The notes under the pieces: generated by a model | Database searches by the model: none | What the model was told of the DNA's origin: nothing | The model's input: the letters and a program-made list of their open reading frames with translations, nothing else | Source: Telmatocola sphagniphila | Lineage (GTDB): Bacteria > Planctomycetota > Planctomycetia > Gemmatales > Gemmataceae | Length of the DNA stretch: 32,000 bases | Assembly: GCF_018398935.1 (NCBI RefSeq) | Contig: NZ_CP074694.1 | Coordinates: forward strand, 4,380,001 to 4,412,000 | Direction of reading: 5' to 3' | Translations under genes and position numbers: made by a program | In this document: piece after piece, positions 13,359-32,000 of the stretch | How the letters are laid out: each line of letters begins with the position of its first letter | How positions within the stretch are numbered: position 1 is the first letter of the stretch

Positions 13359-14122
13359 CAGTCGGAAATATCGAATTCGGATTTTTCCACTTTGTCGAGT
13401 AGCTTGAGTTCGGTGGTGGTAGATTCCATGAACTTGGCGCCGTCGTGAAGCACTTTCGACTTCATGGGCATCATCACTCCGTCGACCTTTTTGTAATCGC
13501 TCAGGAAATATTCCTGATTGCCTTCTTTTTGTTCGGTATTCAAACCGCGTTTTTCCATCTTGGTTACCAGGTAGGTCTTGGTGTCAATATAGATCTTGGT
13601 ATCCTTCAGACCTTTGGCTTTAATGAGTACCACGTAAGCTTCGCTGTCCGCCACCTTTGCTTTTTCCGGCAGCAGGGTGACTTCGAAAGCTTTGTCTTCG
13701 AGGAGCGGGGTCAGCTGTCCGATCTGATGCAGAATCAGGCTTTCTTTCAATTCGCCCTTATTCGCTTCATCCACTGGCATTTCCATGCCGTTGGCGACCA
13801 TGCGCATTTTATCGCCGTTGACCACTTGCACCATCTTGACCTTCTGGCCCATGAATTCGACGTTAACGATCGTCTTCATCTTGTCGGGATTCAGATAAAC
13901 CGACTCGGAGGTGAAGGCCACTTCCAACTCGTTTATTTCGATGGTACCTTTGGTCTTCTCGCGAGCGGCAGGATATTTCTTTACGGCTTCCGCGCCCCCG
14001 CTGGCTTCGATTGCCTTCTTCAGAACCGCTTCTTTATCCAGCTTGTCTTGAGCGGAACTTCGGGCCGTCAGTCCGAGGCTTACCGCACCGACGACGAATA
14101 AACAGATCGCTCGGCGAATCAT
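13358..14122 (-). CDS. secreted hypothetical protein (possibly LolA-fold like)
   Basis: 254 aa with signal peptide MIRRAICLFVVGAVSLGLTARSSA and a Lys/Glu-rich beta-type sequence. Its stop shares 1 nt with the start of the downstream synthase gene (TGATG). Confidence 0.6.
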   Translation of the reverse strand: MIRRAICLFVVGAVSLGLTARSSAQDKLDKEAVLKKAIEASGGAEAVKKYPAAREKTKGTIEINELEVAFTSESVYLNPDKMKTIVNVEFMGQKVKMVQVVNGDKMRMVANGMEMPVDEANKGELKESLILHQIGQLTPLLEDKAFEVTLLPEKAKVADSEAYVVLIKAKGLKDTKIYIDTKTYLVTKMEKRGLNTEQKEGNQEYFLSDYKKVDGVMMPMKSKVLHDGAKFMESTTTELKLLDKVEKSEFDISD

Positions 14123-16774: not shown

Positions 16775-16851
16775 TCGATTGAACTTGTTTATTTTCCCCC
16801 ATTCTGCTTTAAGTTCAGTTACAACGGGCGATTCTCCAGGAGGGAGATACT

Positions 16852-17088
16852 ATGCGCAGAGGTCAGTGGACGGCCGGCTTGCTGGGACTGGGAATATTCG
16901 CGTTCTGGATTTTACGAACGGCGAGTGGCGACAAATCCGCACACGCTCAAGAACTGCAACTGGCCGGTAATGTTGCTGAAGTCAAAGAAACGGAAAGTGA
17001 TCCCGCTCCTTCGGAACATGAAATGGCTGAGTATCGCTATCGAATGAATATGCCCCGGCACTGGCGATACGTGATGCTGAGGCGATAA
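16852..17088 (+). CDS. small secreted hypothetical protein
   Basis: 78 aa. GGAGGGAG lies upstream of the ATG and there is an N-terminal hydrophobic signal-like segment. Confidence 0.45.
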   Translation: MRRGQWTAGLLGLGIFAFWILRTASGDKSAHAQELQLAGNVAEVKETESDPAPSEHEMAEYRYRMNMPRHWRYVMLRR

Positions 17089-17119
17089 CACTTCTTTTAG
17101 CAGGCCGACCCGCCCCCCT

Positions 17120-18796
17120 TTAGGGTTTCGCGGGTGACAATCCGGCGGCTCCTCCGTTAATGTTCGTTACCATATCCCGATGCAGTGGTTCCTGCTGGCC
17201 CAGATGATCGGCCCACAAGTAAATTTTGAAGAGCGCTTCCCCACTCGTTTTCGCCTTGGCTTTGAAGGTGAACTTCTGCTCTTTACCAGCCGGTAGATCG
17301 AGTGCATCGAACGTAATTCCATTCGCCGTGGCCTTGAAATGAGCGGGAGTGGCCTCTTCCTGGAACTCGATCTCCGGCGGCAGGTCGATCTTAACCGTAA
17401 CTCTCTTAGCGGGTCCATCCCCCCCATTTTTGACGGTGATCGTTCCGGTAATGTCATCGCCGACTTTACAATTGGTCGTTCCCTCGCTGGTCCAGTTCAG
17501 AGTCGGCGAGCCATAAAACTCCGTGGTGATCGTCTTCTGGAAATCCTGTCCCGGATTGGCCCGCACCGCGAAAGTGATGGCCCGCGAACCCTCTTTACTC
17601 GCCTCCACCGTCAGACGAAGCTTTTTTTCCTCCTGCGGTTTCAGGCTGGGTAACACCCACTGAACCGAGTCGGGGAACATTTGACTTCCGCTGGAAGTCC
17701 TCGTGGCCTTGACGTCACCGGGAAGACTGCAGTTCACCAGCACATTCTTCAACTCGGCGGTGCCGGTATTCTTGACCATCACGAAGTAAGGGGTCGCCGT
17801 GTTGATCATCGCACGCTGGTTATCGGAAGAGAGAGCGACATCCAGCTTGGCATCGGTAACCTTCACCGACCAGTTGTTCACATTCGAAACCCCGTTTGCC
17901 GAGACCTGATATTTACTGTTGGCCACATCTCCTGAAGCGATCAACTGATATTCGATGACGCGCGTCTGCCCCGGCTTCAGAACATCGATTTTCCACGACA
18001 GCGTTTTAAGGTCTTCCTTCACCGGTTTTGGCGAAGGAGCTTTCTTGGTATCGAGAACGAGCCCCTCGTCGAGTATATCATCGACCAGGATATCGTTAAT
18101 GGTCACTTTGCCGGTGTTCTGCAATTCGAGACGGCAGGCGAACGGCACGCCACGAATAATTTTCGAGGAGGCTTTTTTGTGTACCACCAGTCCCGGTTTC
18201 GAAAGTGCTGTCTGGACCACCACGCCATGTTCGAAGGTAACCTTGCTCACGAACTTGATATCTGTAGCGTCGGGTTCCGGCTTCAGAACCACTTCCACCT
18301 GCTTGCTGGCTCCCATTTTCAGAGTTCCGATTTTGATCCGGCCATCCGGGGGCAGAGGCTTTCCTTCCTCCTTGCCTTCGATTTTGTAACTCACTCCAGT
18401 CGTTCCTTTGGGGGCCGGGCAGATCAAGAAGACTTCGTAAGCATCGGCGGCCGAGCGGTTGGAGGCGCGGACGATATACTTGACCTCTTTTTCTTTTTGG
18501 GCATGCGCCGGGCCGATCACCATGAGCGAAACGGCGGGCGTCGGCAACTGCTCGCCCATGAAACTGCTGGGAGCCGTGAAGGGCGAGCTGTTGGGAACCG
18601 GATTCATCGGGACCTGCCCGGCCACCGGCTGAATGGCCCCGGGCTCTTCGGAGGAGTCCGCTCGAGGTGGCTCCGGAGTTTCTAGAACGTTTCGGGGCAG
18701 CCTGGATGGTTCCTGAAATTGGCCAGCGAACGTTCGCGAACTCAGGGCGAGCAAGGCGACCAAGGGTAACAGAGTTGTCAATCGCACGGGTGCCAT
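17120..18796 (-). CDS. secreted DUF11 (conserved repeat domain) protein
   Basis: Repeated beta-sandwich modules carry DUF11-like signatures: RLELQNTGKVTINDILVDDILDEGL, FVMVKNTGTAELKNVLVNCSLPGDV and TITVKNGGDGPAKRVTVKIDLPPEI. I prefer the start at MAPVRLTTLLPLVALLALSS (signal peptide); the tracked ORF extends to 18859. Confidence 0.75.
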   Translation of the reverse strand: MAPVRLTTLLPLVALLALSSRTFAGQFQEPSRLPRNVLETPEPPRADSSEEPGAIQPVAGQVPMNPVPNSSPFTAPSSFMGEQLPTPAVSLMVIGPAHAQKEKEVKYIVRASNRSAADAYEVFLICPAPKGTTGVSYKIEGKEEGKPLPPDGRIKIGTLKMGASKQVEVVLKPEPDATDIKFVSKVTFEHGVVVQTALSKPGLVVHKKASSKIIRGVPFACRLELQNTGKVTINDILVDDILDEGLVLDTKKAPSPKPVKEDLKTLSWKIDVLKPGQTRVIEYQLIASGDVANSKYQVSANGVSNVNNWSVKVTDAKLDVALSSDNQRAMINTATPYFVMVKNTGTAELKNVLVNCSLPGDVKATRTSSGSQMFPDSVQWVLPSLKPQEEKKLRLTVEASKEGSRAITFAVRANPGQDFQKTITTEFYGSPTLNWTSEGTTNCKVGDDITGTITVKNGGDGPAKRVTVKIDLPPEIEFQEEATPAHFKATANGITFDALDLPAGKEQKFTFKAKAKTSGEALFKIYLWADHLGQQEPLHRDMVTNINGGAAGLSPAKP

Positions 18797-19429: not shown

Positions 19430-21247
19430 ATGATTCGCCATTACCTGCTTGCTAGCTTACTACTGCTGTTCACCAGCCTGTTCTGCACCCCAGCCCGCTC
19501 GGCTGACACCGATAAGAAAAAGGATTCCGGGCCGGTCATTGCTCATATGAAAATCAGCGGCAGCCTCAGCGAAGGTCCGGGAGGCGCTGAAGGTCTGTTC
19601 GGCGGCGGCAACAGCGACAACCTCTCGAGCCGGTTGGAAAAGATCCACAAAGCGAAACTCGACCCGAACGTCAAAGCCCTTTACCTGCAAATTGAAGAAC
19701 CTTCCCTGGGGCTCTTCTCCTTCGGCAAAATCGAAGAGCTCCGCAAGGCCATCGCCGATTTCCGGACCTCCGGCAAACCGGCCGTCGCTTACCTCGAAAG
19801 CATCGGTGGCCTGGAATATCTGATCGCCTCCGCCTGCGATACTATCGCCATCCCGGAGTCGGGCGAATTTGGTCTGACCGGCCTGCACCTGGAAATGCAG
19901 TTCTTCAAGGAGATATTCGAAAAAGTAAAAATCAAAGCCGACTTCCTGACCATGGGCGAAGCCAAAGGCGCTGCCGATCCGTATCTGCGAACGGAAATGA
20001 GCCCGGAGAATCGCAAACAGTACGAAATGGTGCTCGATGATCTCTACGAAAAAAGCCTGATCGAAGGCATCAAGAACGATCGGCCAGCCAAGAAATGGAC
20101 CACCGAACAAGTGAAGGAACTGATCAACACCGCACCCCACACGGCCAAGAAAGCCCTGGAAGTCGGACTGGTCGATCAACTGGCCTACCCCAACGAATTC
20201 GAAGCGAGCCTGATCAAGAAATTCGAAGACGGTAAGAGCAAGATCGTCCGCAACTACGGCAAAAAGGTCGATCCCGATGCGGACAATCCCTTCGCCGCGC
20301 TGATGAAGATCATGCAGCCGCAGAAGAAGACTTCGTCTAAGAAGCCGAAGATCGCCGTGATCTACGCCGTGGGGGAAATCTCCACCGGCAAGAGCGGCGG
20401 CGGCCTGATGGGCGGCCATACGATGGGTTCCACCACCATGGTCGAAGCCATCGAACAGGCCGATAAGGACGAAACGGTGAAAGCCATTGTTCTTCGCATC
20501 GACAGCCCGGGAGGTTCCGCGCTGGCCAGCGACTTGATGTGGAACGCCTTGCGAAACTGCAAAAAACCAGTAATCGCCAGCATGGGCGATGTGGCCGCGA
20601 GTGGCGGCTATTACATTGCCATGGGTGCGAAGAAAGTTTACGCCGAACCGGGTACCCTGACCGGTTCCATCGGCGTACTGGGCGGCAAGCTGGTGCTGGG
20701 TGAAACCTTTAAATGGCTCGGTCTGCATACCCAGACGCTCAACCGCGGTCAGAACGCCGGCTGGTCGTCGACGAACACGATCTTTTCTGAATCGGAACGT
20801 AAGGCCATCACTAATGTGATGTCGAACGTTTACGATCAATTCCTGGATCGCACCGTGCAGAATCGCAAAGCGGCCGGAGTGGACCTGCCTTTGGATAAAC
20901 TCAAGCCAATAGCCGGGGGCCGCATCTGGACCGGTCGGCAGGCGAAAGAACGCGGACTGGTCGATGAACTGGGTACCTTGCATGATGCTTTGGAAGAAGC
21001 CAAGAAGGAAGCCAAGTTCGATCCCAAGGTTGAACCGGAACTGTTGATTCTGCCCGAGCCGACCAACTTCCTGGATCGTTTCCTGGACGGCGGCCTCGGC
21101 GCCCGGGTGAATGTGCTGAATCAACTGGGGCTGAGTTCGGATTCGCTGCTGGGCTTAGGTGAGCATCTGAAAATGCTGGAGCCGTTCTTCAACAACCCGC
21201 GCGAAAAGGTCTGGCTCTTGGCTCCGGTGAATGGAAAGATTCGGTAG
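19430..21247 (+). CDS. sppA: signal peptide peptidase SppA, 67K type (S49)
   Basis: Two S49 halves. Lys context GEAKGAADPY in the N-half; RIDSPGGSALASD and MGDVAASGGYYIA (Ser nucleophile context) in the C-half. I prefer the start at MIRHYLLASLLLLF (TM/signal); the tracked ORF starts at 19334. Confidence 0.9.
   Translation: MIRHYLLASLLLLFTSLFCTPARSADTDKKKDSGPVIAHMKISGSLSEGPGGAEGLFGGGNSDNLSSRLEKIHKAKLDPNVKALYLQIEEPSLGLFSFGKIEELRKAIADFRTSGKPAVAYLESIGGLEYLIASACDTIAIPESGEFGLTGLHLEMQFFKEIFEKVKIKADFLTMGEAKGAADPYLRTEMSPENRKQYEMVLDDLYEKSLIEGIKNDRPAKKWTTEQVKELINTAPHTAKKALEVGLVDQLAYPNEFEASLIKKFEDGKSKIVRNYGKKVDPDADNPFAALMKIMQPQKKTSSKKPKIAVIYAVGEISTGKSGGGLMGGHTMGSTTMVEAIEQADKDETVKAIVLRIDSPGGSALASDLMWNALRNCKKPVIASMGDVAASGGYYIAMGAKKVYAEPGTLTGSIGVLGGKLVLGETFKWLGLHTQTLNRGQNAGWSSTNTIFSESERKAITNVMSNVYDQFLDRTVQNRKAAGVDLPLDKLKPIAGGRIWTGRQAKERGLVDELGTLHDALEEAKKEAKFDPKVEPELLILPEPTNFLDRFLDGGLGARVNVLNQLGLSSDSLLGLGEHLKMLEPFFNNPREKVWLLAPVNGKIR
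21182..21247 (+). repeat. direct repeat copy 1: last 22 codons of sppA (PFFNNPREKVWLLAPVNGKIR*)
   Basis: It recurs at 26595..26660 with almost only synonymous differences. Confidence 0.85.
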
Positions 21248-21270: not shown

Positions 21271-21299
21271 CCACCCCGGCGATGTGCCCAACGGGGTGG
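21271..21299 (+). terminator. sppA rho-independent-type terminator hairpin
   Basis: ccaccccg / cggggtgg, an 8-bp GC-rich stem with a 13-nt loop, followed by ctatttgtt. Confidence 0.6.
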
Positions 21300-21442
21300 C
21301 TATTTGTTAACGCGAGAAAGATCAGGATTCTGAAAAGGCTTCGATCTTCTCCCTATGATGGTGCTGATTTGGAACTCCTCTGGAATACGCACTGGAAGAT
21401 AGCCAGTGCTGCCCGCCGAGCTAATCGAATTGGAAAGCGGCC
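21298..21442 (+). repeat. ~150-nt intergenic repeat, copy C1
   Basis: Shares ggcttcgatcttctcc with C2 and tctggaatacgcactg with C3. It starts ggctatttg, with an inverted partner aagatagcc at 21396. It ends at the gajA ATG. Confidence 0.8.
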
Positions 21443-23299
21443 ATGTATCTTCAAATCGTCCACGTCAAGAATTATCGCTGTTTGCGGGACATAACCGTGT
21501 CATTTTCACCAGGCTTGAATGTCATCGCTGGCGAAAACAATACGGGAAAAACTGCGCTTTTAGACGCCATCAGAGCAGCATTAGGGCCCGCAGCCGCTAC
21601 TGGTGAGGCAATTAGGCTTACTCAGGATGATCGGCATAGGACGAAGGAAGGGACCTATATAGATGCCCCTATATCGGTTAAGTTGATATTTGCTGATCTC
21701 ACGGAGCAGGAACAAGGCCAGTTCATTGACATATTGAATTACAACCCTACTGAGCCGAGCGAATCAACAGCACAAATCAATTTTCAATGGAACTGGAATG
21801 CAAAAACTGGCCGCTATAGCATCAATCGGTGGGGAGGGAGCGCAGGCAGTTCCGAAAGTGGCATTCCAGAAGATGTACTGCAATCTGTGCCCGTGACTCT
21901 CCTCGGAGCTCTAAGAGATGCAGCTTCGGCCTTGTTGCCGGGGAGGAACAGCAGACTCGCCCATTTACTCATCGCTCATGCTACAGAAGAGGAAAAAGAG
22001 TCGCTCGTTAAATTCGTCGTCACAGCTAACAACGCATTGGAGAAAGACAAACTTGTTTCGAGAACCCAAGAGTTAATTAAGACCACATTGCAGAAAGCAT
22101 CAGGGCCGATGATGGCTCAGGAAGCTGCGATCAAAACGGCCGAGCCAGAATTCGATAAAGTGGTTCAGAGTTTGAGACTCGTAATTGCCCGGTTGGGCTC
22201 CAACGGTAATATGGTGCTTGACGAATTACGATCTAATGGGTTAGGCTACAACAATCTTCTTTTTATCGCAACGGTAATGCTAGAGCTCAACGCTGCGAAA
22301 TCTGCCCTGATGCCGCTGTTGCTAGTCGAGGAGCCAGAAGCACATTTACATCCCCAATTGCAGATATTACTTGCCAATTTCCTAAGTGATCCGCAAGGAA
22401 TCCACCAAGCGAAAGTCCAGACTCTCGTAACAACACACTCGCCTACTATTGCTGCGCATGTATCACCGGCAAACTTGCGAATACTTCATCGCGGGAAGGA
22501 TGAAGCATTACGATGTGCCTCATTCGGTGACTGTTCAATTGAAAAGCGTCAACTTCAACAACTTAGGCGAATGTTTGATGTGACTAAGGCTGCCATTCTA
22601 TTCGCTAAAGGAGTACTGTTAGTCGAAGGAATTACTGAAGCATTATTGCTCCCTGTTTTGGCCCGCCGCGAAGGATTCAACCTTGAAGCGGCTGGCGTTT
22701 CGGTAGTACCAGTGTGCGGGGTAGATTTTGTTTCGATTTGCAATCTTTATGGAGATAAAGGACTTCACACCCCTATTGCAGTCGTCACTGATGGGGATTC
22801 AGGAACAGAACGTTGCGGATCTGGGAAGGCTTCGGAATGGGAATCGAAATTGCCGAAGTTTGACACTAACGGGAAACCAATGATCTGTGATCGTGTAGTT
22901 AAATTGAAAAAAGAGTACGAAAATCACGAATTCATCAGGATCCATAACTCTGACGTGACTCTCGAATACTCGCTGGCATCAGCGGGGGAAAAGAACCCCT
23001 CTATCATGTGCGATGTCTGGGTAAACCAGTTCGAGAAGACACCAAAAACCTTGAACCATGAAAAATTGAAGGCCTGCAATGGTAAGCATTCCGAGCAAGT
23101 TCTAACTATTTGGCGAGGTATTTGCCTTGCGGATACAGCATACTCAAAAGCAGAATTCGCTCAAGCGCTTGCCGAGACTTTAGAAGAAAAAAATGTTCAA
23201 GGACAATACCTCATACCTACATCAGATTTTGTCGTTCCAAAATACCTGAAAGACGCATTCGGCCATGTTGCGCAAAAATCAACCAAAGCCTCCAACTGA
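21443..23299 (+). CDS. gajA: Gabija GajA: OLD-family ATPase plus TOPRIM endonuclease
   Basis: 618 aa with the N-terminus MYLQIVHVKNYRCL and Walker A GENNTGKT. ABC-like features are SNGLGYNNLL, Walker B LLLVEEPEAHLHPQLQ and TTHSP. The C-terminal TOPRIM domain has LLVEGITEALLL (Glu) and VVTDGDS (DxD). It is paired with a UvrD-like helicase, as in class 2 OLD / Gabija. Confidence 0.85.
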   Translation: MYLQIVHVKNYRCLRDITVSFSPGLNVIAGENNTGKTALLDAIRAALGPAAATGEAIRLTQDDRHRTKEGTYIDAPISVKLIFADLTEQEQGQFIDILNYNPTEPSESTAQINFQWNWNAKTGRYSINRWGGSAGSSESGIPEDVLQSVPVTLLGALRDAASALLPGRNSRLAHLLIAHATEEEKESLVKFVVTANNALEKDKLVSRTQELIKTTLQKASGPMMAQEAAIKTAEPEFDKVVQSLRLVIARLGSNGNMVLDELRSNGLGYNNLLFIATVMLELNAAKSALMPLLLVEEPEAHLHPQLQILLANFLSDPQGIHQAKVQTLVTTHSPTIAAHVSPANLRILHRGKDEALRCASFGDCSIEKRQLQQLRRMFDVTKAAILFAKGVLLVEGITEALLLPVLARREGFNLEAAGVSVVPVCGVDFVSICNLYGDKGLHTPIAVVTDGDSGTERCGSGKASEWESKLPKFDTNGKPMICDRVVKLKKEYENHEFIRIHNSDVTLEYSLASAGEKNPSIMCDVWVNQFEKTPKTLNHEKLKACNGKHSEQVLTIWRGICLADTAYSKAEFAQALAETLEEKNVQGQYLIPTSDFVVPKYLKDAFGHVAQKSTKASN

Positions 23300-25070
23300 A
23301 GAGCAAGAGGCTGCTTTACGTTCCGATGCTCGAATCACGGTTGTCCGCGCATGTCCTGGTGCTGGCAAGACCGAAGTATTCGTAGAGGCCATTCGAACGC
23401 GCCTCCGGCATTGGGACCATCTGAATGGCGGACTCGCAGCACTCTCATTTACAAATGTAGCCAGGGACACCATCGAGGAACGAATTGGGGGGGCGACACC
23501 TTATCCACATTTTATTGGTACACTGGACGCTTTCAGCTATCGCTTCATCGTCAAGCCTTTCGGGCATCTGGTTGGACTACCACAAAACGCCATTCGTCTT
23601 TTCCCCGCCACTATAGCCAAAGTACTAGAAGATCCAGTGATAAAGGTGGGTGACAAAAACCACGAACGAGCCTCGATTTACTCCATCTCTTTTTTCGGCG
23701 GTGATCGTGAAAAACCTCGGATGAAGACAAAGCTGTCAAGGTCCAATGATTTCGTTGTACCTCCAGCAAGTGAAATTCGAGTTCTGAATGAGAAAAAGCG
23801 ATTTTGGAAGAGCACTGGTATAGTCACTCACTCGGATTGCCATTACTTGTCTTGTTGTATCGTCAATCATCCAACTTTTGGAAAGAACGTAAGAAAGATT
23901 CTGACCTCTCGTTTCCCAGTCATACTAATCGATGAGCTCCAAGATACAGGTTTCTTTTTGGCCCGCGCTTTTCTTGCAATTCTTGCAGAAGAAAAATCGT
24001 TCGGTTTTGTAGTGGGGGATCCTAACCAAGCCATTTATGGATTCAGTGGTGCTAACCCTAGTATTTTCAAAGATTTCGAATCACTTGCAAACGCAAAATC
24101 GTTGTCTCTTTCACTCAGCCATAGATGCTCGAAGGCTGTGGCAAAAGTAGCCAACGCTTTATCCTCTACGGGGAGTGAACTTATACCTATACCTTCAGCA
24201 ATTGACGGATCGGCTTGTCTTAGTGTTCATGATCTAGAGGAAGCGGTTCTTTCTCCGGCGCATGTGGAATTTTTGAAAAGCCTCAAAATTGGAAGTTCTC
24301 TTGCAATTCTCTCACGTAGGACAAAAACTGCCTGCGGTCTGAAAGGCGAGATAGTCAAGGATGAATTTAGAGGAGTTTCAAAAGCTGCTAGAAGGGTCCA
24401 TCGCGCCTTACAACTCCTCATCAATGGCGAACCACGCGAGGCACACAAATTACTCCAAACAGAACTTGCAAGGATTATCCTAGGTGATGAAACGGCTAAA
24501 GCGATTGCTTGGGAAGAAAGGGGCATTTCGCAATTGAATTTGCGAAACGCCGTATTCAGCGTCTTGAGGAATTCATTCGTGTATATCCCGAATGAGTCAT
24601 GGAACGAGTGGGTAAAGCGAACTCGAGATAAAGTTATGGAAGCGGCGAAATCGCTCGGCTGGACAGACGATGGAAAGGCATTCCTCACATACAGGTCGTG
24701 CAACGAGAAGGGCAATACTCCTCGTTCCAATTTCATGAAAACTAGTTCTTCCATGGATTGGGATGTGGTGAGTACAATTTCAACTATCCACAAAGTCAAA
24801 GGTGCGGAATTTGATACTGTGATCTTATTCGTGCCAAAAACTACAAAAGGAAATTGCCCATCGATAGAGTGGTGGCCTGGTGCTACTGACGCTGATGAAA
24901 GAAGAATCGCCTATGTCGCGGTATCTCGGGCAAAAATTCGTTTCGTGTTGTGTGTCCACAAATCAGTTTTCAAAGCGATAGAGCAGCTTCGACCTGATTT
25001 CATCAAGTGTTTCGAAGAATCGATTCCGATGCCGCAAGTCTCCAAGCCCGAAACACCATCATTATTTTGA
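23265..25070 (+). CDS. gajB: Gabija GajB: UvrD/PcrA-like SF1 helicase
   Basis: 601 aa with Walker A CPGAGKT and Walker B ILIDELQDT. Also GDPNQAIYGFSGA, TIHKVKGAEFDTVILFV and RIAYVAVSRAK. Its ATG lies 35 nt inside the gajA 3' end. Confidence 0.85.
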   Translation: MLRKNQPKPPTEEQEAALRSDARITVVRACPGAGKTEVFVEAIRTRLRHWDHLNGGLAALSFTNVARDTIEERIGGATPYPHFIGTLDAFSYRFIVKPFGHLVGLPQNAIRLFPATIAKVLEDPVIKVGDKNHERASIYSISFFGGDREKPRMKTKLSRSNDFVVPPASEIRVLNEKKRFWKSTGIVTHSDCHYLSCCIVNHPTFGKNVRKILTSRFPVILIDELQDTGFFLARAFLAILAEEKSFGFVVGDPNQAIYGFSGANPSIFKDFESLANAKSLSLSLSHRCSKAVAKVANALSSTGSELIPIPSAIDGSACLSVHDLEEAVLSPAHVEFLKSLKIGSSLAILSRRTKTACGLKGEIVKDEFRGVSKAARRVHRALQLLINGEPREAHKLLQTELARIILGDETAKAIAWEERGISQLNLRNAVFSVLRNSFVYIPNESWNEWVKRTRDKVMEAAKSLGWTDDGKAFLTYRSCNEKGNTPRSNFMKTSSSMDWDVVSTISTIHKVKGAEFDTVILFVPKTTKGNCPSIEWWPGATDADERRIAYVAVSRAKIRFVLCVHKSVFKAIEQLRPDFIKCFEESIPMPQVSKPETPSLF

Positions 25071-25252
25071 TGACTTCTTGAATCGTGAGAGGGAGGAAAT
25101 TGAAAACGAGAAGACCGATTGTAACCGTGAGCTGTAATCATCGAATTGTTCCAGAGGCTTGTTACCTTGGCGTCCGCCTGATAACAGCGGCAGGAGACAG
25201 GTTATTCCTATCATTCGTCTCAAATCATTGAAAAGTAATCTGTTGGTGCTCG

Positions 25253-25412
25253 AGCTATTTGCCAGAGTACGAAAAATCAAGCTTCTAAAACGGCTTCGAT
25301 CTTCTCCAATGACTCTGCTGATTTGGGAACTTCTCTAGAATACGCACATGCAGATAGCCAGTGCCACGCAAGCCAAATCAGGAGATGGGGTTAGGATTAG
25401 AGAGAATCTAGC
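25253..25412 (+). repeat. ~150-nt intergenic repeat, copy C2 (3' end hit by IS630)
   Basis: agctatttg...cagatagcc (25351), plus tccaatgactctg and gggttaggatta, both shared with C4. Confidence 0.8.
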
Positions 25413-25414
25413 TA

Positions 25415-26582
25415 GTGTAGTGCCTCAGAAATAGCGTTACCTTTAGCTACTTTTTGCGGTTTACTCTATAGAGAAGGAGAAAACCCATGAAAGTCGCGCT
25501 GCCAATTTCGCTGTCCGAGGAGGAACGTCAAACTTTGACTGCTTGGTCTCGGGGACGAAGCACTCCCGCTCGGCTGGTCCTGCGGGCGAAGATCATACTC
25601 GCGGCGGCCGCAGGTGTACTGAACAAGGATATTGCTCAGCAGTGCGGCACGTCGAAACCCACGGTGGCGCGCTGGCGGACCCGATTTGCGAAGCTGCGTT
25701 TGGCGGGTATCGAACGGGACGCTTCGCGGCCGGGTCGAACGCCAGCGATCAGCGGGAAAGTCGTCGAAGAAATTCTCCGCAAGACCACTCAGGAGAAACC
25801 ATCCGGTGCGACTCATTGGAGCACACGAACGATGGCCCAAGAGGTGGGAGTGAGCAAAGCCACCGTGCAGCGGGTTTGGTCGTCCCATGGCCTGAAGCCT
25901 CATTTGCTTAAGACCTTCCAGGTATCGAATGATCCTCAATTCGCCGAGAAACTGTGGGATGTAGTGGGCTTGTACTTGAACCCTCCCGAGCACGCCCTGG
26001 TGCTGAGTTGCGATGAGAAGAGTCAGATTCAAGCCCTTGATCGCACGCAAAAAAGCTTGCCGATGGTACCCGGCCGTTGCGGCACTCTGACTCACGATTA
26101 CATGCGTCATGGCACCACCACTCTGTTCGCGGCTTTGAACGTGGCAGAAGGAGTAGTAATTGGCGAATGCATGCCGCGACATCGACACCAGGAATGGATC
26201 AAGTTTCTCAAACGGATCGATGCCGCCACCGATCCGTCCTTGGACTTGCATTTGATCGTGGACAACTACGCTACGCACAAGCATCCCAAGGTTCGGCGTT
26301 GGTTGGCCCGACATCCTCGATTCCACATGCATTTCACCCCCACGAGCAGTTCCTGGATGAATCTGGTGGAGCGTTGGTTTCGCGACTTGACGGACAAACG
26401 ACTGCGTCGAGGCACATTTCGAAGTGTGCCGCAGTTGATCCAGGCGATTGAAGACTACATCGATCATCACAACAACACAGGAAAGGGATTCCAATGGACT
26501 GCCAAAGCCGAGGCTATTCTGGAGAAAGTCCGCCGGGCGAGGGCTACCCTGGATAAAACACCTTCCGTGTGAGACACTACAC
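25415..26582 (+). mobile_element. IS630-family insertion sequence, apparently intact
   Basis: Terminal inverted repeats are gtgtagtgcctca (left) and tgagacactacac (right), matching 12 of 13. TA flanks both ends (25413-14 and 26583-84). The reconstructed target gCTAGt fits the CTAG/TA preference of IS630. It contains a single DDE transposase ORF. Confidence 0.85.
25487..26572 (+). CDS. IS630-family (Tc1/mariner-like) DDE transposase
   Basis: 361 aa with an N-terminal HTH region ([23 protein letters not shown]; [11 protein letters not shown]). DDE contexts are [25 protein letters not shown] and MNLVERWF. The stop codon lies inside the right IR. Confidence 0.9.
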
Positions 26583-26594
26583 TAGTGCCACCCG

Positions 26595-26660
26595 CCGTTC
26601 TTTGCGAATCCTCGCGAAAAAGTCTGGCTCTTGGCTCCGGTAAATGGGAAAATCCGGTAA
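26595..26660 (+). pseudogene. orphan copy of the sppA 3' end (22 codons plus stop), direct repeat copy 2
   Basis: Translates PFFANPREKVWLLAPVNGKIR*, versus PFFNNPREKVWLLAPVNGKIR* in sppA. Nine codons differ only at silent third positions (including TAG to TAA) and one codon is replaced (N to A). There is no ORF upstream; an in-frame TAG lies at 26583. Confidence 0.85.
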
Positions 26661-26673
26661 ATCTTTTTGCATC

Positions 26674-26700
26674 ACCCATCGGTAATGGATAACGGTGGGT
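26674..26700 (+). terminator. terminator-like hairpin homologous in position to the sppA terminator
   Basis: acccatcg / cggtgggt, an 8-bp stem with one G-U pair and an 11-nt loop, 13 nt after the orphan stop codon. The T-tail is weak. Confidence 0.4.
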
Positions 26701-26726
26701 ATTCTGGGTATGGGCAAAAGTTGGTG
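26693..26726 (+). repeat. direct repeat flanking the membrane-protein/Sel1 cassette (left copy)
   Basis: cggtggg and the 11-mer ggcaaaagttg (26713) recur at 28756 and 28788. Confidence 0.6.
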
Positions 26727-26799
26727 CCAGATTACCACGGAGTTCGGGTCTGAAGAGGGGGATTGGCGGATTCAAAGCTTATAAGTACTTGGAGATTCA

Positions 26800-27252
26800 A
26801 TGATGTCTTCGGGAGATTCGGGCAATATTTCTACAAAGGGAAAGTCTCATCCCACGGATACCCGAGACGCAAACACCTCGCCATCGGACGATGGAACCGC
26901 CACCTGGTTCCTGTTAGGCATCGGGCTCATCGCCCTGATCTGCTTGATTATCGGAATCTTATCGCACGGATTTGAATGGAAGCGTATTCTGACGGCGGCG
27001 GGTTCCATGCTGTCGGGAATCGCCTTCATGGCCATTGGCTTGCTAGAGTTGGAATGGCTGGAACGCATCGTCGGAATCTTCGATGGAATTTTCGGCCTGG
27101 TGGTCCAATGGTGCTGGACGAGCTGGTATGGATCTCTTTCAGACGCGGACGCGCTGGGCCGTCGGGGAGCCAGCGTCATCTGGATGATCGCCGGCATAGC
27201 GTTGTACATATCCGGGTGCCTGATTGCCTTGCGGGTGATCAAGGTTTTTTGA
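26800..27252 (+). CDS. small hypothetical membrane protein (3-4 TM)
   Basis: 150 aa. A polar N-terminus is followed by TM spans WFLLGIGLIALICLIIGIL, AAGSMLSGIAFMAIGLL and VIWMIAGIALYISGCLIAL. No family recognised. Confidence 0.6.
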   Translation: MMSSGDSGNISTKGKSHPTDTRDANTSPSDDGTATWFLLGIGLIALICLIIGILSHGFEWKRILTAAGSMLSGIAFMAIGLLELEWLERIVGIFDGIFGLVVQWCWTSWYGSLSDADALGRRGASVIWMIAGIALYISGCLIALRVIKVF

Positions 27253-27477
27253 ATCCCTCTTTCCCCTCGCTCCCTCTAAATTCACAAAATTTGATGCGAG
27301 GCGGTGTCCGAAAATTTCTTCGGGAATATCGACGTGGGGATCTCCTTGAAGCACTCGGCAAGATGGCCCTCTCCCTAAGACAGTGTTCGCGCAACGACTG
27401 ATCTTGCTCGAATTATTGATCTGAAGTACTCTGTCTGCGCTATTCCTTTTTGAGAGACAAAAATGCGAATGCTTACA

Positions 27478-27487
27478 TTTTTTTTTT
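27478..27487 (+). repeat. homopolymeric T10 tract separating an ATG plus signal-peptide-like leader from the Sel1 ORF
   Basis: ATG 27463 (MRMLT) runs into T10. The Sel1 frame is open upstream through FFFLIIQIIYHSSVHA but has no ATG there. T9 would fuse the two frames. Confidence 0.85.
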
Positions 27488-27517
27488 CTGATTATTCAAA
27501 TAATTTATCACAGTTCA

Positions 27518-28678
27518 GTGCATGCTCAAACCGCATCGAATGTCTCCGAACGCTTGAAGGAGGATCCTTTTCGTGACCAGCTAAAGCAGTTCGAAAAGTG
27601 TCGATTTGATGCGAAGAAAAGCGAAGCGTTTTTCAAGGAGATTGGTCCGAAAGAAATTCAAGTTTGGGAAAAAGCGGTCGAGAATGGTTATCCCATAGCC
27701 CAATACTTTTACGCGCAATGTCTCCATAACGGATATGGTGTTGCGAAGGATCAGGATGCCGCCATGAATTGGTTTCGAAAGTCGGCAGAAGGCGGGCTAC
27801 CCATTGCCATGTCTTGTATCGGTGCTCATTTCGAATTCGATTCAAAAGAAAAGAATTTGATTCAAGCCATCAAGTGGTATCAGAAAGCGGCGGCGCTGGA
27901 CGATAGTGACGGGATGTATCTTCTGGGTAGAAATTCTCTGTCGGACAAAAGGAACAAGGATGATCTGGATCTGGCTTTGAGCTGGCTGAAAAAGTCAGCC
28001 GATTTTGGGAATCCGGCGGCGATGTACCAGCTGGGAGTTTACAGCGAATCCTTGAATAATATTGAAGGATTTAAGGTCGCTGCGGAATGGTATCGCAAAG
28101 CAAGCGAACAGAATGTCGCCGTGGCGATGAATCGACTTTCACAACTATATATGGTTGGTCGCGGTTTTGTTGCGGACGAGAAAAAAGCATTTCAGTGGAT
28201 GCTGAAAGCAGCTGAGGCGGGCGATCCGGATTCCATGCTCGAAGTCGCTAAATTCCTCAAATTGGGGTATGGTGTCGAAAAAAATCTTCGCGAGAGCCAG
28301 AAGTGGATTCTTTCGGCAACTAAGAAATTTGAAGAAGGCGCGAAGCGAAAAGAGATTTACTCGGTGCGAAAGTTGGCTTCAATGTATTGGCAGGGATTGG
28401 GAGTTACTAAAAATAAGTCCGAGGCTGTTAACTTGCTTCGAGCAGCTGCGAAATTGGGGGATCAGCGATCCAAAGATTTGCTGCTGGAAATGGTTTTAAA
28501 CGAAGAGCTTGTCTCTCGAGATGGGATATTGATATCCTCGAAAACATCCGGGGATCTATCGCAAATTCGGGTCATCGATTCTCCCCTTTTGAACGGTTTA
28601 GAAATCAGACAAAAACTGCCGCCTGCATTCGAGCTCCGCTGCGATTACTTGGCGGAGGAATCTCCTCCGTCGAAATGA
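27518..28678 (+). CDS. Sel1-like repeat (SLR/TPR-family) protein
   Basis: 386 aa from GTG 27518 with about 7 SLR units (AQYFYAQCLHNGYGVAKDQDAAMNWFRKSAEGG, AIKWYQKAAALDD, ALSWLKKSADFGNPAAMYQLG, AAEWYRKASEQN, AFQWMLKAAEAGDPDSM and others). The true N-terminus is probably upstream (see the T10 tract). Confidence 0.85.
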   Translation: MHAQTASNVSERLKEDPFRDQLKQFEKCRFDAKKSEAFFKEIGPKEIQVWEKAVENGYPIAQYFYAQCLHNGYGVAKDQDAAMNWFRKSAEGGLPIAMSCIGAHFEFDSKEKNLIQAIKWYQKAAALDDSDGMYLLGRNSLSDKRNKDDLDLALSWLKKSADFGNPAAMYQLGVYSESLNNIEGFKVAAEWYRKASEQNVAVAMNRLSQLYMVGRGFVADEKKAFQWMLKAAEAGDPDSMLEVAKFLKLGYGVEKNLRESQKWILSATKKFEEGAKRKEIYSVRKLASMYWQGLGVTKNKSEAVNLLRAAAKLGDQRSKDLLLEMVLNEELVSRDGILISSKTSGDLSQIRVIDSPLLNGLEIRQKLPPAFELRCDYLAEESPPSK

Positions 28679-28755
28679 TTTTTACTGGTTATGGAATGCA
28701 TTGTCGCCGAGGCTTTTGATCGATCAGTCCAAAGGTCCTCGAGTCGTCCCTTTCG

Positions 28756-28802
28756 CGGTGGGGTGGTACTGCTTGTTCCTATGAATTGGCAAAAGTTGTT
28801 GA
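28756..28802 (+). repeat. direct repeat flanking the membrane-protein/Sel1 cassette (right copy)
   Basis: cggtggggtggtactgcttgttcctatgaattggcaaaagttgttg. It shares cggtggg and ggcaaaagttg with 26693..26726. Confidence 0.6.
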
Positions 28803-28824
28803 CTAATAATGTATTGGGAGGCAC

Positions 28825-28970
28825 GGTTTATTTGTCAGCGTACGAAAACTTAATCCTCTGAAAAGGCTAAGATCCTCATCCTGTGACTCTTATAAGTTAG
28901 CGTTTTTTCTGGAATACGCACTGACGGATAGCCACCCAAGACAAATCGTGATAAAGGGTTAAAATCAAAG
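28825..28970 (+). repeat. ~150-nt intergenic repeat, copy C3
   Basis: ggtttatttgtcagcgtacgaaaa..., then tctggaatacgcactg, cggatagcc (28925) and gataaagggttaaaatc. Confidence 0.75.
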
Positions 28971-29311
28971 TGATGACCTGGTCAGTACCAGCCTGCCGAG
29001 CCCTGCAAATCACTGTCAGTACTTTTTTATTTATTTTTTTATTTTAACATTAATTTCTATTTACTTTTTATTAAGTAAGATGTAGATTAGTTTAAGAAAG
29101 CATTACGAAATGACTTTTGTGTCACCTGGGTTTTAGTAATACTCCTCCTCATCCGTCGAAATCCGTTCTTGATTCTTCGAGTAGAGTTTCTTTCAAGTAG
29201 GAGAGTAGTCTATCTGGTTTGAATTTTACTTCTGTTAAAATTTCAACGGCTTCATCCTATAGTTCTTGCAGATCTTTCAGAAGGAGATTGGCGCAGTGCC
29301 TGTATTTAAGG

Positions 29312-29345
29312 TGGCTCCGGTGTTGTTCGACGACGGGGAGACACC
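29312..29345 (+). repeat. vestigial third copy of the sppA 3' end plus terminator arm
   Basis: tggctccggtg is identical to sppA 21219-21229. acgggg...ggctatttt then parallels acggggtggctatttg at the C1 junction. About 45 nt are missing relative to copy 1. Confidence 0.5.
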
Positions 29346-29496
29346 GGCTATTTTCCAGTGTCAAAAAGATTGGAATTCTGGAATTGCATTGACCCTCATC
29401 CAATGACTCTGATGATCTAGGAATTCGAAAAGATGCATTAGCAGATAGCTAATGCCATCCAAAAGAAATCAGGATAAAGGGTTAGGATTAAAATCT
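29346..29496 (+). repeat. ~150-nt intergenic repeat, copy C4
   Basis: ggctattttccagtg..., then tccaatgactctg, cagatagct (29442) and gataaagggttaggattaaaatc. Confidence 0.75.
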
Positions 29497-29788
29497 GACA
29501 GCCATCCCAACGCGAGCTTAGTGTTGGGAGATTCAGCGATCTACGCTGCGAGAATTAAGCTTAAGTATCTCAGCTACCTCTCTTTTTGGTGTTGCCTTCA
29601 CAAGATCAGTTGAACGCCGAGACTAGGTCGATTTATCGGCTCTTGGTGGCTAGTAATTTTCTATAACAGTGAGGTAGCGGTTTGTGTTGATACGATCATG
29701 GTAGGGCCGAGATCGCACTCTGAGCAAATAGATTGAAAAGTATTCAGGTAATTGAAATTCCTTAGGGGGATAATGCATATATTGCACC

Positions 29789-29815
29789 GGCTATCTCAGA
29801 GCGAGGAAGAGTAAT
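29789..29815 (+). repeat. truncated 5' fragment of the repeat unit
   Basis: ggctatctcagagcgaggaagag compares with agctatttgccagagtacgaaaa (C2). It lies about 50 nt upstream of the 29837 start codon. Confidence 0.4.
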
Positions 29816-29836: not shown

Positions 29837-30763
29837 ATGACAGAGATTCAGGCAACAACCTTTAGTAGGCTCTCACGATTAGTATTAACTGGTATCATGA
29901 TTTTGATCGCCGTACTTATTTTACTATTTGTTGGTGTTTTTTCTGCCGAATCCAAACAAATAGATTTAACATCTATCAATAAATCGGACTATAATAATAA
30001 TGAATATCCTAATTTTTTTACCAAAGAACTCCCACCTGTAATCATAGATGATGATGATGCCGAACTAATTTCGACAACGTTCACAGTAAAAAATGATAGA
30101 GAACGGGCGATCACTTTTTCTCCTGTGAGGATGTCTTGTTCATGTCAGGATGCTGAACTCAGTAAGCAAACTTTACAACCGGGCGAATCGACGATACTGC
30201 GCATGGGACTGAGACCCGCGACCCGATCAGGTGCTCAAAAGATCACCTGTGCTATCGATGAAATAGGTGGCGATACAAAAACGTTCGAACTTCGGACTAC
30301 GATCTATCGAAAAGCCCAATTTTCAGAACCGGTGATTCATTTCGGAATGGTTGATCCTTTATCAGTATACGAGAAGTCGTTCGCGATCACATTTGCAGCG
30401 ACTACCGAAACACAACTACCGAAGAATATCGTTTTCTCATCTCAAGGTACCGTAATATCGAAAATAAATGAGGTCATAGAGCCAATGAAGGATGGCTGTT
30501 GGGTCAAGCGGATATCCGCCACTAGCAAACTGATAGCACCGACGGAACTCGGATCAGGCGGATCGAATTTGACGGCTACATACTCAATCGGTACAGAATC
30601 GCCGCAAATGCAATCTATCCAAGTCGATTGGTTTGTCCGATCGCCGTTTTCTGTCAGTCCATCTCGAGTAGGGATACTGCCTGCCGAAGTTAAAGACGCA
30701 AAGCAAAGCAAATCAGACGCAACCTTCAAATTCGGTCTTCAACAAATAAACCCTTCAAAATAA
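29837..30763 (+). CDS. membrane-anchored DUF1573-like protein, N-terminal 308 aa of a frame-split gene
   Basis: N-terminal TM anchor LVLTGIMILIAVLILLFVGVF. FTVKNDRERAITFSPVRMSCSCQDAELSKQTLQPGESTILRMGL resembles the DUF1573 beta-sandwich motif. The region is low-GC. Confidence 0.7.
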   Translation: MTEIQATTFSRLSRLVLTGIMILIAVLILLFVGVFSAESKQIDLTSINKSDYNNNEYPNFFTKELPPVIIDDDDAELISTTFTVKNDRERAITFSPVRMSCSCQDAELSKQTLQPGESTILRMGLRPATRSGAQKITCAIDEIGGDTKTFELRTTIYRKAQFSEPVIHFGMVDPLSVYEKSFAITFAATTETQLPKNIVFSSQGTVISKINEVIEPMKDGCWVKRISATSKLIAPTELGSGGSNLTATYSIGTESPQMQSIQVDWFVRSPFSVSPSRVGILPAEVKDAKQSKSDATFKFGLQQINPSK

Positions 30764-30951
30764 CTAAAATTATCAGCCCACATTCATCAATTCAGGCAAA
30801 AGTAATCAACAAAGATGAAACTCTTGCAATGATCGAAGTAACTATATTGACGAACACTTTAGCTGATTTTCAATATGGCGACCTGATAATTGAAACCGAC
30901 AATCCAAAAGCACTTACAGTTACGATACCCGTAGCCATAATGCCTAGTTAA
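30694..30951 (+). pseudogene. C-terminal continuation of the DUF1573-like gene in the -1 frame
   Basis: The frame is open from 30694 to TAA 30949-51 and encodes ..NKPFKITKIISPHSSIQAKVINKDETLAMIEVTILTNTLADFQYGDLIIETDNPKALTVTIPVAIMPS. It has no suitable start of its own and overlaps the end of the upstream frame. Confidence 0.6.
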
Positions 30952-30985
30952 TAAAAAACCTTTTTACTCATCAAGGGGACATCAG

Positions 30986-31450
30986 ATGGCAAACGCAAGA
31001 ACTACGGTGACAGCATGGAGCGTGATCGCAACGGGAGTTTTGCTCATTGCAGCCTCCGCGTCAAACGCAACCGATTGGCCCACCTTGGGAACTGCGACAA
31101 CTTTTGTTAGGAATAGATGTATCCAACAAGACCCATACTCTAACGGCGGTAGTTGCACGCATTATAATTATTGCATTGCTAGAAATAACACAGATCCAAA
31201 CTTAACTGGGGTGTGCCCAGGATTTCCGAATATGAAACGAACTGATTTTCGTTCATATGGCTATTGCGTTTTGGATGGACTTGAAAATGGAGGTAGCAGC
31301 TGCGATCAATATACTAATCCTGTTTGCGCTCGAATTACCTTTTATGAGAATGCAGGTTGTACTAGTATGTCAACCTGTAATATGTGGGTGATCATCAATG
31401 GCAACGCCTGCCTCGCGCCTGTCGCTGTTGCCCCTCCGCCTGCTGATTGA
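30986..31450 (+). CDS. secreted cysteine-rich hypothetical protein (10 Cys)
   Basis: 154 aa with signal-like AWSVIATGVLLIAASASNA, ten Cys spread over the mature part, and a Pro-rich C-terminus. AAGGGGA lies upstream of the ATG. Confidence 0.65.
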   Translation: MANARTTVTAWSVIATGVLLIAASASNATDWPTLGTATTFVRNRCIQQDPYSNGGSCTHYNYCIARNNTDPNLTGVCPGFPNMKRTDFRSYGYCVLDGLENGGSSCDQYTNPVCARITFYENAGCTSMSTCNMWVIINGNACLAPVAVAPPPAD

Positions 31451-31506
31451 TAAAGTTAATTAATTTCTAGGGCAGTAATATTTGCAACTTCAAGCATGGA
31501 TACTCT

Positions 31507-32000
31507 ATGAAATACAATTGGCCCTTTCGCGACTGCGGTACCGTTGTCGCAATCTGCATTTTACTTGTCTTGTGCCCGAATATTTGCCATGCACTTTCTG
31601 ATGATGAGCAAATCACTCGGTCGGCAATAATAGGATATTCATCTAATATTGAGTCGTTTTCGTTTTACACAGTTAAATTCCAATTCACATCTGCAAAATC
31701 TTCAACTCATGAAGATGCTATACAAGGAAAGTGGGAAGGCGCAAAGTCATATATTGGCGTTCATACTGTGGATGGTGAATTCGAATCTTACGAACACGAT
31801 GGAAAACCTCCACCTAAAATATCGGCCCCTTCAAATGGCAAAGCAAAAGGTGGTGTGTTTTTCCAACAAATAAATGACTTTATGGAAGAAAAGTATATTC
31901 GATCTCCATCGGGCACAGCAAAGTATACTCGGGGTATTGATGCTATTAACTTGCGGCGGTTAGATACTGATGACCCATTTGACTTTGCGACGCCACTATC
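31507..32000 (+). CDS. secreted hypothetical protein, N-terminal part (runs off the window; absent from the ORF track)
   Basis: I read this frame codon by codon from ATG 31507 to the window edge and found no stop. It encodes MKYNWPFRDCGTVVAICILLVLCPNICHALSDDEQ..., a signal-like N-terminus. Confidence 0.6.
   Translation, partial: MKYNWPFRDCGTVVAICILLVLCPNICHALSDDEQITRSAIIGYSSNIESFSFYTVKFQFTSAKSSTHEDAIQGKWEGAKSYIGVHTVDGEFESYEHDGKPPPKISAPSNGKAKGGVFFQQINDFMEEKYIRSPSGTAKYTRGIDAINLRRLDTDDPFDFATPL

Follow-up and report, generated by a model that had tools for sequence, protein, structure and literature searches.

The DNA analyzed here, referred to as the window, is a 32,000-nt stretch of the Telmatocola sphagniphila genome (contig NZ_CP074694.1, positions 4,380,001 to 4,412,000) that reaches into a gene gap punctuated by a family of direct repeats, which we call C. 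Relatives of this planctomycete retain sppA and a Ser/Thr kinase gene as convergent neighbors, with a gap that is otherwise 107 to 285 nt, whereas the gap here is filled with about 14 kb of DNA of lower GC content (44 to 50% versus about 54%). A Logan contig of the same organism (L106, from read set SRR14506984) reaches 5.3 kb beyond the window end to the kinase gene, and window and extension together make up the 37 kb of sequence surveyed. In its left part the gap holds the first repeat copy (C1), gajA-gajB, C2 with an IS630 insertion sequence (IS) within its tail, a remnant of an sppA end, an open reading frame (ORF) of 150 aa and a remnant of a kinase gene end; in its right part it holds a Sel1-repeat gene, C3, about 310 nt of AT-rich DNA, C4, a six-gene block led by a DUF1573 gene, C5 and the intact kinase gene. 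Our preferred, though tentative, reading is that C is a decaying palindromic repeat resembling REPINs (repetitive extragenic palindromic [REP] doublets forming hairpins) or bacterial interspersed mosaic elements (BIMEs), lying at the seams of an island built by addition.

Four copies on the plus strand, beginning at 21298, 25253, 28825 and 29346, had been reported by a sequence-only reading of the window, together with a set of identical runs and an inverted 9-mer pair in each copy. All of these were correct, with each copy scoring 129 to 153 bits against an nhmmer profile of the four (E = 1e-39 to 1e-46), and the same profile found no further copy in the 32-kb window. BLAST between copies gave E values of 1e-22 for C1/C2, 2e-13 for C2/C4 and 2e-12 for C2/C3. 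The full units are longer than first described (124 to 190 nt, 60 to 85% alike and 0.5 to 4 kb apart), and their ends had to be redrawn: C1, which had been taken up to the gajA ATG, stops at 21421, C3 extends to 29001 and C4 to 29517. That reading missed the palindrome-doublet anatomy of C, an older locus trapped in the island and a fifth copy. The copies and their extensions are as follows, HP1 and HP2 being the two palindromes of the core.

21298..21421, plus strand: C1, short form, its head adjoining the sppA hairpin, HP2 at 21389-21409, tail end ..CCCGCCGAGC, 21 nt 5' of the gajA ATG (nhmmer, E = 4e-39)
25118..25252, plus strand: upstream extension of C2, homologous to the stretch ahead of C3 (local alignment to 28700-28817)
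25253..25414, plus strand: C2, long form, HP2 at 25344-25364, tail interrupted by the IS630 element (nhmmer, E = 1.5e-46)
26585..26597, plus strand: where the C2 tail finishes (GTGCCACCCGCCG) and fuses with the old sppA end across a GCCG overlap (read directly with the IS removed; it matches the C1 tail CCCGCCG)
28700..28824, plus strand: upstream extension of C3, homologous to 25118-25246 (local alignment)
28825..29001, plus strand: C3, long form, the 3' arm of HP2 lost by a 6-nt deletion, tail end ..CCTGCCGAGC (nhmmer, E = 1.2e-39)
29314..29517, plus strand: C4, long form, HP1 at 29341-29361, HP2 at 29435-29455 with compensating arm changes, tail end ..GCGAGC (nhmmer, E = 1e-39)
29789..29815, plus strand: possible head-only fragment (GCACCGGCTATCTC..), weak, just 5' of the DUF1573 gene (15 of 21 positions match the reverse complement of C1 HP2)
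L106 8889-8930, 3.4 kb past the window end: C5, partial (the 3' 40 nt, C1-like), abutting the stop codon of the convergent kinase gene (nhmmer, E = 3e-4; BLAST, E = 3e-5)

C5 is a lone palindrome copy, and the fragment at 29789 may be a second. The latter had been listed as a member of the family and is not significant on its own, its alignment being no better than those of shuffled sequences. A 14-nt run, ATTGAAAAGTATTC at 29732-29745, matches 25227-25240, just 5' of C2, at 13 of 14 positions; collinear with this putative head fragment and 44 nt before it, it hints at a longer degraded C head before the DUF1573 gene. Near C3 and C4 two other features are visible. The stretch between them (29002-29313, about 310 nt) is gene-free and very AT-rich with long T runs (GC content of 37% in the 29001-29500 bin), and a deleted block may have left it behind. 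At 29545-29574, between C4 and the DUF1573 gene, there is a near-palindrome of 30 nt, GCTGCGAGAATTAAGCTTAAGTATCTCAGC.

At the core of C an imperfect 21-nt palindrome, with GCACTGG and CCAGTGC arms around CTATCTT (GCAYYRGCTATYTNYYARTGC), occurs twice in inverted orientation, at an HP1-HP2 spacing of 98 to 101 nt. HP2, the minus-strand copy of the 21-mer about 100 nt into the unit, forms a stem of 7/7 bp in C1 and C4 and of 5/7 bp in C2 and C5, and HP1, the inverted copy that forms the head, is well formed only in C4, where it is identical to the reverse complement of C1 HP2 at 17 of 21 positions. Within the window the 21-mer is confined to the C copies (4 matches versus 0.09 expected). The layout is that of a REPIN or BIME, an inverted pair of imperfect palindromes of about 20 to 60 nt with a short spacer. 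It had been proposed that the inverted 9-mers delimit an invertible or regulatory leader; they proved to be pieces of the palindrome doublet, all copies are in the same state, and no sigma-70-type promoter or terminator is conserved in the shared C columns, and the proposal is not supported.

The two edges of the unit differ in character. The right edge is sharp: C1, C3 and C4 end at ..C(C/G)GAGC (21421, 29001 and 29517) with unrelated DNA beyond, C2 is joined 4 nt short of this common edge, and C5 ends ..CCCGCTGTG at the kinase stop. The left edge is ragged: C1 begins at the sppA hairpin, C4 starts about 32 nt earlier, and C2 and C3 share about 130 nt more (25118-25246 versus 28700-28817; z = 4.6, 1 of 500 dinucleotide shuffles). 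C1 and C5 represent a short form and C2 to C4 a long form, in which the direct octamers GCCAGTGC and GCTAGTGC enclose about 54 additional nt; the polar tail after the core measures 15 nt in the former and about 80 nt in the latter. All copies lie in a single orientation, on the plus strand, like every cargo gene. Because they are only 60 to 85% alike, they look like aging relics, not an active population.

As the sequence-only reading had judged, a 9-bp stem seen in C2 is specific to that copy and not conserved; a different nested fold, however, appears to be kept. This fold (an outer stem, a 5-bp stem and a 7-bp stem) has 88% of its cells paired versus 25 to 43% in slid controls, with only four sequences to compare. 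It includes 4 compensatory pairs, and 19 to 21 of 500 shuffles reach the same score across the four full copies; HP2 shows 2 compensatory pairs in C4. The fold covers 108 nt with its helices O, S2 and S3 and their internal loops, and the conserved unit runs 15 to 80 nt beyond the 3' box. Support for a conserved nested fold across the four copies is modest. Their minimum free energy z-scores ranged from -0.07 to -2.4 with RNA parameters and from +0.7 to -2.1 with DNA parameters, and a globally structured RNA or single-stranded DNA was dismissed for lack of significance in these scores.

A local hairpin kept with compensating changes, an orientation that matches all cargo genes and an end of C1 only 21 nt before the gajA start are what a transcribed regulatory element might display, whether as a cargo leader or 5' untranslated region (UTR), a 3' UTR stabilizer or a multicopy small RNA. 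We consider this very improbable. Rfam families, including group II intron domains, gave no match over the window at the gathering threshold, and a search of C1 and the C3-C4 region returned nothing relevant even up to E = 10. No promoter or terminator columns are conserved, folding z-scores are about 0 in most copies, and only C1, perhaps with the fragment, lies directly 5' of a gene, C3 and C5 preceding none. Moreover, the Gabija loci of relatives, with GajA proteins of about 70% identity, lack C, and these loci also exclude C as a part of the Gabija module itself.

Nor is C a conserved peptide, in agreement with the sequence-only reading. The idea that the copies are decayed 3' fragments of a protein-coding gene draws on a 50-codon frame that is open in C3 (28810-28959), with similar peptides in the others and a common stop in GGGTTA[AG]; C1 and C2 need one 1-nt correction each, and 2 of 4 indels are multiples of 3. 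Changes by codon phase amount to 0.356, 0.287 and 0.345, with no third-position excess, which speaks against a coding remnant. The C peptide had no Pfam or NCBIfam match at E = 10 and no match among 1.84 billion representatives by full HMMER, and the peptide alignment had none among 5.8 billion proteins in a word search, so that we hold a gene fragment to be extremely improbable.

Several other identities were rejected. A CRISPR array (near-identical repeats of about 25 to 40 nt with spacers of like size), which had been set aside earlier for the size and spacing of the units, is ruled out by units of 124 to 190 nt that are 60 to 85% alike and 0.5 to 4 kb apart. A cut-and-paste miniature inverted-repeat transposable element is contradicted by homology that passes both inverted repeats and by the lack of a flanking target-site duplication. 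C shows no similarity to the ends of the resident IS630 element, which excludes an origin from it. The repeats of a diversity-generating retroelement do not fit either, as the differences between copies are not adenine-specific (50 to 64% are transitions) and no reverse transcriptase was found.

The sppA/kinase gap was compared among five relative loci. It is empty in L252 (107 nt), and in L129 to L131 its 285 nt are filled by four REP-type palindromes. The closest relative, L107, has an sppA that is only 74% identical, the nearest found in a search of 5.8 billion proteins, and its gap holds a gene for a 195-aa HUH tyrosine transposase with an HVH motif (L107 3048-3821) that resembles a REP-associated tyrosine transposase (RAYT; NCBIfam REP_Tyr_transpos, 1.8e-8, below the curated cutoff). 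The REPs around this gene differ from the C palindrome, and no C homologue was found in the gap in any of the five loci, by which C was dismissed as an ancestral spacer of the gap.

Some details of these loci are worth recording in their own right. On either side of the RAYT-like gene of L107 stands the same GC-rich hairpin pair (..CGCCTCCRCACCARCGGTGCGG.. and ..GTCGCACCSGCGGGTGCGAC..). The REP-type palindrome of L129, a more distant relative, is 22 nt long (GGGACAAGCCTnnAGGCTTGTCCC) and occurs four times at 11698-11849; it is also present in L130 and L131. L128, from a Gemmataceae-type genome, carries direct repeats of its own of 165 nt and 92 nt with several small palindromes (13683-13847, 16780-16944 and 17051-17299), which bracket a 3-kb gene block a few kilobases downstream of sppA and are unrelated to C in sequence.

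We lean toward a REPIN/BIME-like repeat in part because the same gap holds REPs or a RAYT-like gene in relatives, and L128 has its own 165-nt repeats. On this reading an HUH tyrosine transposase of the RAYT type would formerly have spread C, and the present role of the repeats is likely confined to shared homology and hairpins. Several observations weigh against it. There are 0 C copies or lone palindromes in the 21 kb of core sequence upstream and 0 in the 1.9 kb downstream, and no RAYT cognate to C was found in the 37 kb. Homology reaches well past the palindrome doublet, into the tail and the 130-nt extension, and all copies stop within 4 nt of a common right edge, neither of which is predicted by a plain 110-nt REPIN. 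Folding-energy z-scores are not significant in three of the four copies with either RNA or DNA parameters. Finally, five or six copies within 14 kb, in one orientation and with one per outer edge, are unlike the outcome of random transposition.

The genes, remnants and other features among which the repeats lie are these.

19430..21247, plus strand: sppA, signal peptide peptidase S49, the left core flank of the variable site (Pfam Peptidase_S49, 1e-61; Logan gene call, 605 aa)
21272..21298, plus strand: hairpin past the sppA stop (CACCCCG..CGGGGTG), its 3' arm reaching the first base of C1 (read directly; partly flagged by a terminator-like scan)
21443..25070, plus strand: Gabija defense operon, cargo block A, with gajA at 21443-23299 and gajB at 23265-25070 (PADLOC GajA, 5.9e-154, and GajB, 1.6e-61; Pfam)
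25415..26582, plus strand: IS630-family IS inside the C2 tail, with 13-nt terminal inverted repeats and a 361-aa transposase (NCBIfam transpos_IS630, 1.4e-81; Pfam DDE_3)
26594..26659, plus strand: 66 nt left from an older sppA 3' end, with 83% identity to 21181-21246 (BLAST, E = 1e-15)
26800..27252, plus strand: ORF of 150 aa belonging to the trapped older locus, with a gene-end remnant on either side (Logan gene call; no family match)
27261..27358, minus strand: remnant of an older kinase 3' end, about 98 nt, 82 to 85% identical to L106 8937-9025, with the joint at 27358|27359 (BLAST, E = 6e-18)
27518..28678, plus strand: Sel1-repeat protein gene, cargo block B (Pfam Sel1, 2e-40)
29837..32000, plus strand: start of cargo block D (DUF1573 protein gene, then others), which runs on 3.4 kb past the window to C5 and the kinase gene
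L106 8937-10139, minus strand: intact Ser/Thr kinase gene, convergent with sppA

The claim that the repeats stand at cargo-block boundaries downstream of sppA was borne out. Of the three roles proposed for C, the one most directly supported is that of homologous flanks brought in along with each island, on the strength of the duplicated sppA and kinase 3' ends and the flank shared by C2 and C3. The duplicated gene ends mean that flanks were co-imported, and added rather than swapped. The segment 26594-27358 appears to be the fossil of a former near-empty sppA/kinase locus, made up of a 66-nt sppA end, a hairpin, the 150-aa ORF and a kinase end of about 98 nt. Since the two gene-end remnants bracket this former locus, two imports or more were additive. 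Once the IS is taken out, the C2 tail ..GCTAGTGCCACCCGCCG passes straight into old sppA sequence GCCGTTCTT.., with an overlap of 4 nt (GCCG); this is the sole joint at which both parent sequences can be read. On the kinase side homology ends at ..GCACTCGG|CAAGATGG (27358|27359).

The Gabija block entered with sppA as its anchor, and its far end (the C2 tail) was attached 66 nt ahead of the old sppA stop, across the GCCG overlap. A second block entered with the kinase gene as its anchor and was attached within the old kinase end. This left the former "empty" locus trapped in the middle of the island. Homology-facilitated illegitimate recombination has as its signature an addition beside a homologous anchor, with a far-end microhomology join and without an integrase; homology at one end with an illegitimate join at the other is the mode of import that we infer here. 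The same map would come from site-specific integration that supplies a replacement gene end. The repeats would have arrived with the 3' flanks of imported genes; being the sole sequence common to the blocks, they could then offer patches at which blocks are further gained, lost or shuffled by RecA-type exchange.

The same evidence bears on a plainer account, in which C is local intergenic DNA from the sppA/kinase gap of relatives, immobile and passively copied with one-sided homologous import or by segmental duplication. The gene-end remnants prove flank co-import, C1 and C5 sit at native positions beside sppA and the kinase gene and are both of the short form, left boundaries vary, and the core identity of C1 and C2 (83 to 85%) is of a similar order to that of the duplicated gene ends. 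We nevertheless judge this unlikely: the trapped older locus at 26594-27358 has no C, the gaps of relatives hold no C homologue, no sppA or kinase remnant adjoins C3 or C4 (a search for further sppA remnants there gave nothing significant), and an inverted doublet with compensating changes suggests more than a neutral spacer.

Other observations concern the cargo and flanks. GajA, with an ATPase plus a TOPRIM domain, is followed by GajB, a UvrD-like helicase, as expected of Gabija; gajA and gajB overlap by 35 nt (23265-23299), as they also do in the homologous loci L108 to L110. The IS630 target is CTAG with a TA duplication (25413-14 and 26583-84). The short-read Logan assembly is interrupted at this IS, and L106 differs from the window at 26500 and 26524 in the IS end; these two base differences suggest that the genome holds other, slightly different copies of the IS. 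A second Ser/Thr kinase gene lies at 10911-12323 of the window, less than 25 kb from the one at L106 8937-10139, and only the downstream gene makes the conserved convergent pair with sppA. No tRNA or tmRNA is present as a possible target.

A further alternative is that C is a dedicated recombination site, either integron-like or like the att sites of tandemly accreted islands without an integrase, with its recombinase encoded elsewhere. A cassette would then be cargo plus a 3' C, inserting at the right edge of a resident C, and a co-oriented array would grow between sppA and the kinase gene. What keeps this explanation alive is the single orientation of every copy, the presence of a copy at each outer edge, the sharp right edge, and the lack of C in the intergenic gaps of block D and in the 23 kb of core sequence. 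Like outer att sites, C1 borders the sppA hairpin and C5 the kinase stop; the common right edge ..CCGAGC| recurs in four unrelated contexts, the kinase-side copy included, with C2 ending 4 nt earlier. The repeats are found 50 to 220 nt past the last gene of each block, and the putative fold, in which two boxed stems come with an unpaired spacer and a variable tip, recalls a folded attC. We nonetheless regard a dedicated site as unlikely, though the next most probable reading after the preferred one. No recombinase gene was found in the 37 kb (the window and 5 kb beyond), the left edge is uneven between copies, and 130 nt beyond the site are common to C2 and C3. One block seems to lie inside a C, between the fragment and C5, and not after one, and the single outer joint readable on both sides, between the C2 tail and old sppA, amounts to only 4 nt of microhomology. 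The exchange is seen in no second genome.

The sequence-only reading saw no canonical attC core, and we agree: the paired ends read GGCTATTTG / CAGATAGCC, and the AAC/GTT triplets of RYYYAAC/GTTRRRY are absent from them and from the conserved columns on either strand, because of which a canonical attC is excluded. A bolder version, in which a Gemmataceae-type planctomycete uses the C copies as recombination sites of an integron-like platform for gene capture, with a 3' C of about 190 nt, exchange at the ..GAGC edge and an unlinked recombinase, possibly of HUH/RAYT type, acting on the folded doublet, is in our view decidedly unlikely. A new cassette system is not established and is a minority possibility.

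Homologues of C were sought in several collections. The pattern scans could catch only copies that keep a 17- to 23-nt core, and the first genome pattern was too short for specificity. Among genome contigs the scan gave 103 matches, all due to chance, none of which extended past the pattern by BLAST or nhmmer; in metagenomes there were at least 120 matches, with none extending past the pattern among the matches listed; and two viral scans gave 0 and 17 matches, again with none extending past the pattern. BLAST against plasmids and phages returned only chance matches of 25 to 30 nt. As a sequence family C has no homologue in any collection searched, and it probably belongs to a kind of element already known.

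On the preferred reading of C as a REPIN/BIME-like repeat, the locus would offer a clear worked case of defense-island growth in a little-studied phylum, by one-sided homology and an illegitimate join, with a former empty site fossilized within the island and palindromic repeats at its seams. It may help in reading island boundaries in Planctomycetota and cautions against calling every seam repeat an att site. Should the copies be true exchange sites, they would represent a non-integron cassette platform and bear on how gene cassettes gain recombination sites; an integron-like platform would link REPIN-like repeats to the capture of defense genes.

Among known systems, attC sites have the core sites R'' (RYYYAAC) and R' (GTTRRRY), two inverted box pairs, an unpaired spacer and a variable tip, and are 57 to 141 nt long; a cluster of attC sites lacking an integrase (CALIN) has at least two attC within 4 kb, and the Vibrio cholerae repeats are an example from chromosomal integrons. 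C resembles such arrays in being lineage-specific, about 120 to 190 nt long, with imperfect inverted ends and a sharp right edge, and in following each of several unrelated, co-oriented cargo blocks with no adjacent integrase gene, as in CALINs. It differs in having no RYYYAAC/GTTRRRY core, paired ends 100 nt apart within a longer unit, multigene blocks, ragged left edges and an array set between two core genes instead of beside attI and intI. The array does not qualify as a CALIN, as the C sites lack the core triplets and no tyrosine recombinase was found in the window or extension.

Tandem accretion is known for integrative elements and their integrase-less derivatives, the cis-mobilizable elements (CIMEs) that the ICESt1/ICESt3 family has at the fda 3' end. 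In common with these, the island has blocks free of recombination genes between direct repeats, which have accumulated at a conserved gene's 3' end, and it contains both a replacement for that end and the old one, now displaced. Known att repeats, however, are tens of nucleotides long and near-identical, whereas C units are 124 to 330 nt and 60 to 85% alike; here both convergent genes have displaced ends, and the overlap at the readable joint is just 4 nt. Homology-facilitated illegitimate recombination, described for Acinetobacter and Streptococcus transformation, is matched by DNA added beside an anchor gene, the 4-nt GCCG join, a short duplication of the anchor and the lack of any need for a recombinase; it accounts for the outer blocks but not for the nature of C or its recurrence at inner seams.

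REP and REPIN families are defined by dispersal and high copy number, whereas C is seen only within one 14-kb island and not in the 23 kb of flanking core within the 37 kb surveyed. Its copies also depart from REPINs and BIMEs in being only 60 to 85% alike, in their polar tail of 15 to 80 nt and shared upstream extension, and in their single orientation. The published account of REPINs (Bertels and Rainey, 2011; PMC3116915) describes hairpin-forming pairs of inverted REPs at 71 or 110 bp, with single REPs as remnants left by decay and with clusters that were duplicated flanks included. C likewise has inverted short imperfect palindromes about 100 nt apart with a spacer that appears to retain a long hairpin, lone palindromes as apparent relics, and copies duplicated along with their flanks. 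It is extragenic, past 3' ends, and lies in the convergent-gene gap where relatives have REPs and a RAYT-like gene. We rate a REPIN/BIME-like repeat as the best reading because the inverted palindrome doublet, apparently structured spacer, lone relic palindrome or palindromes and flank-wise duplication fit REPINs and REP clusters as published.

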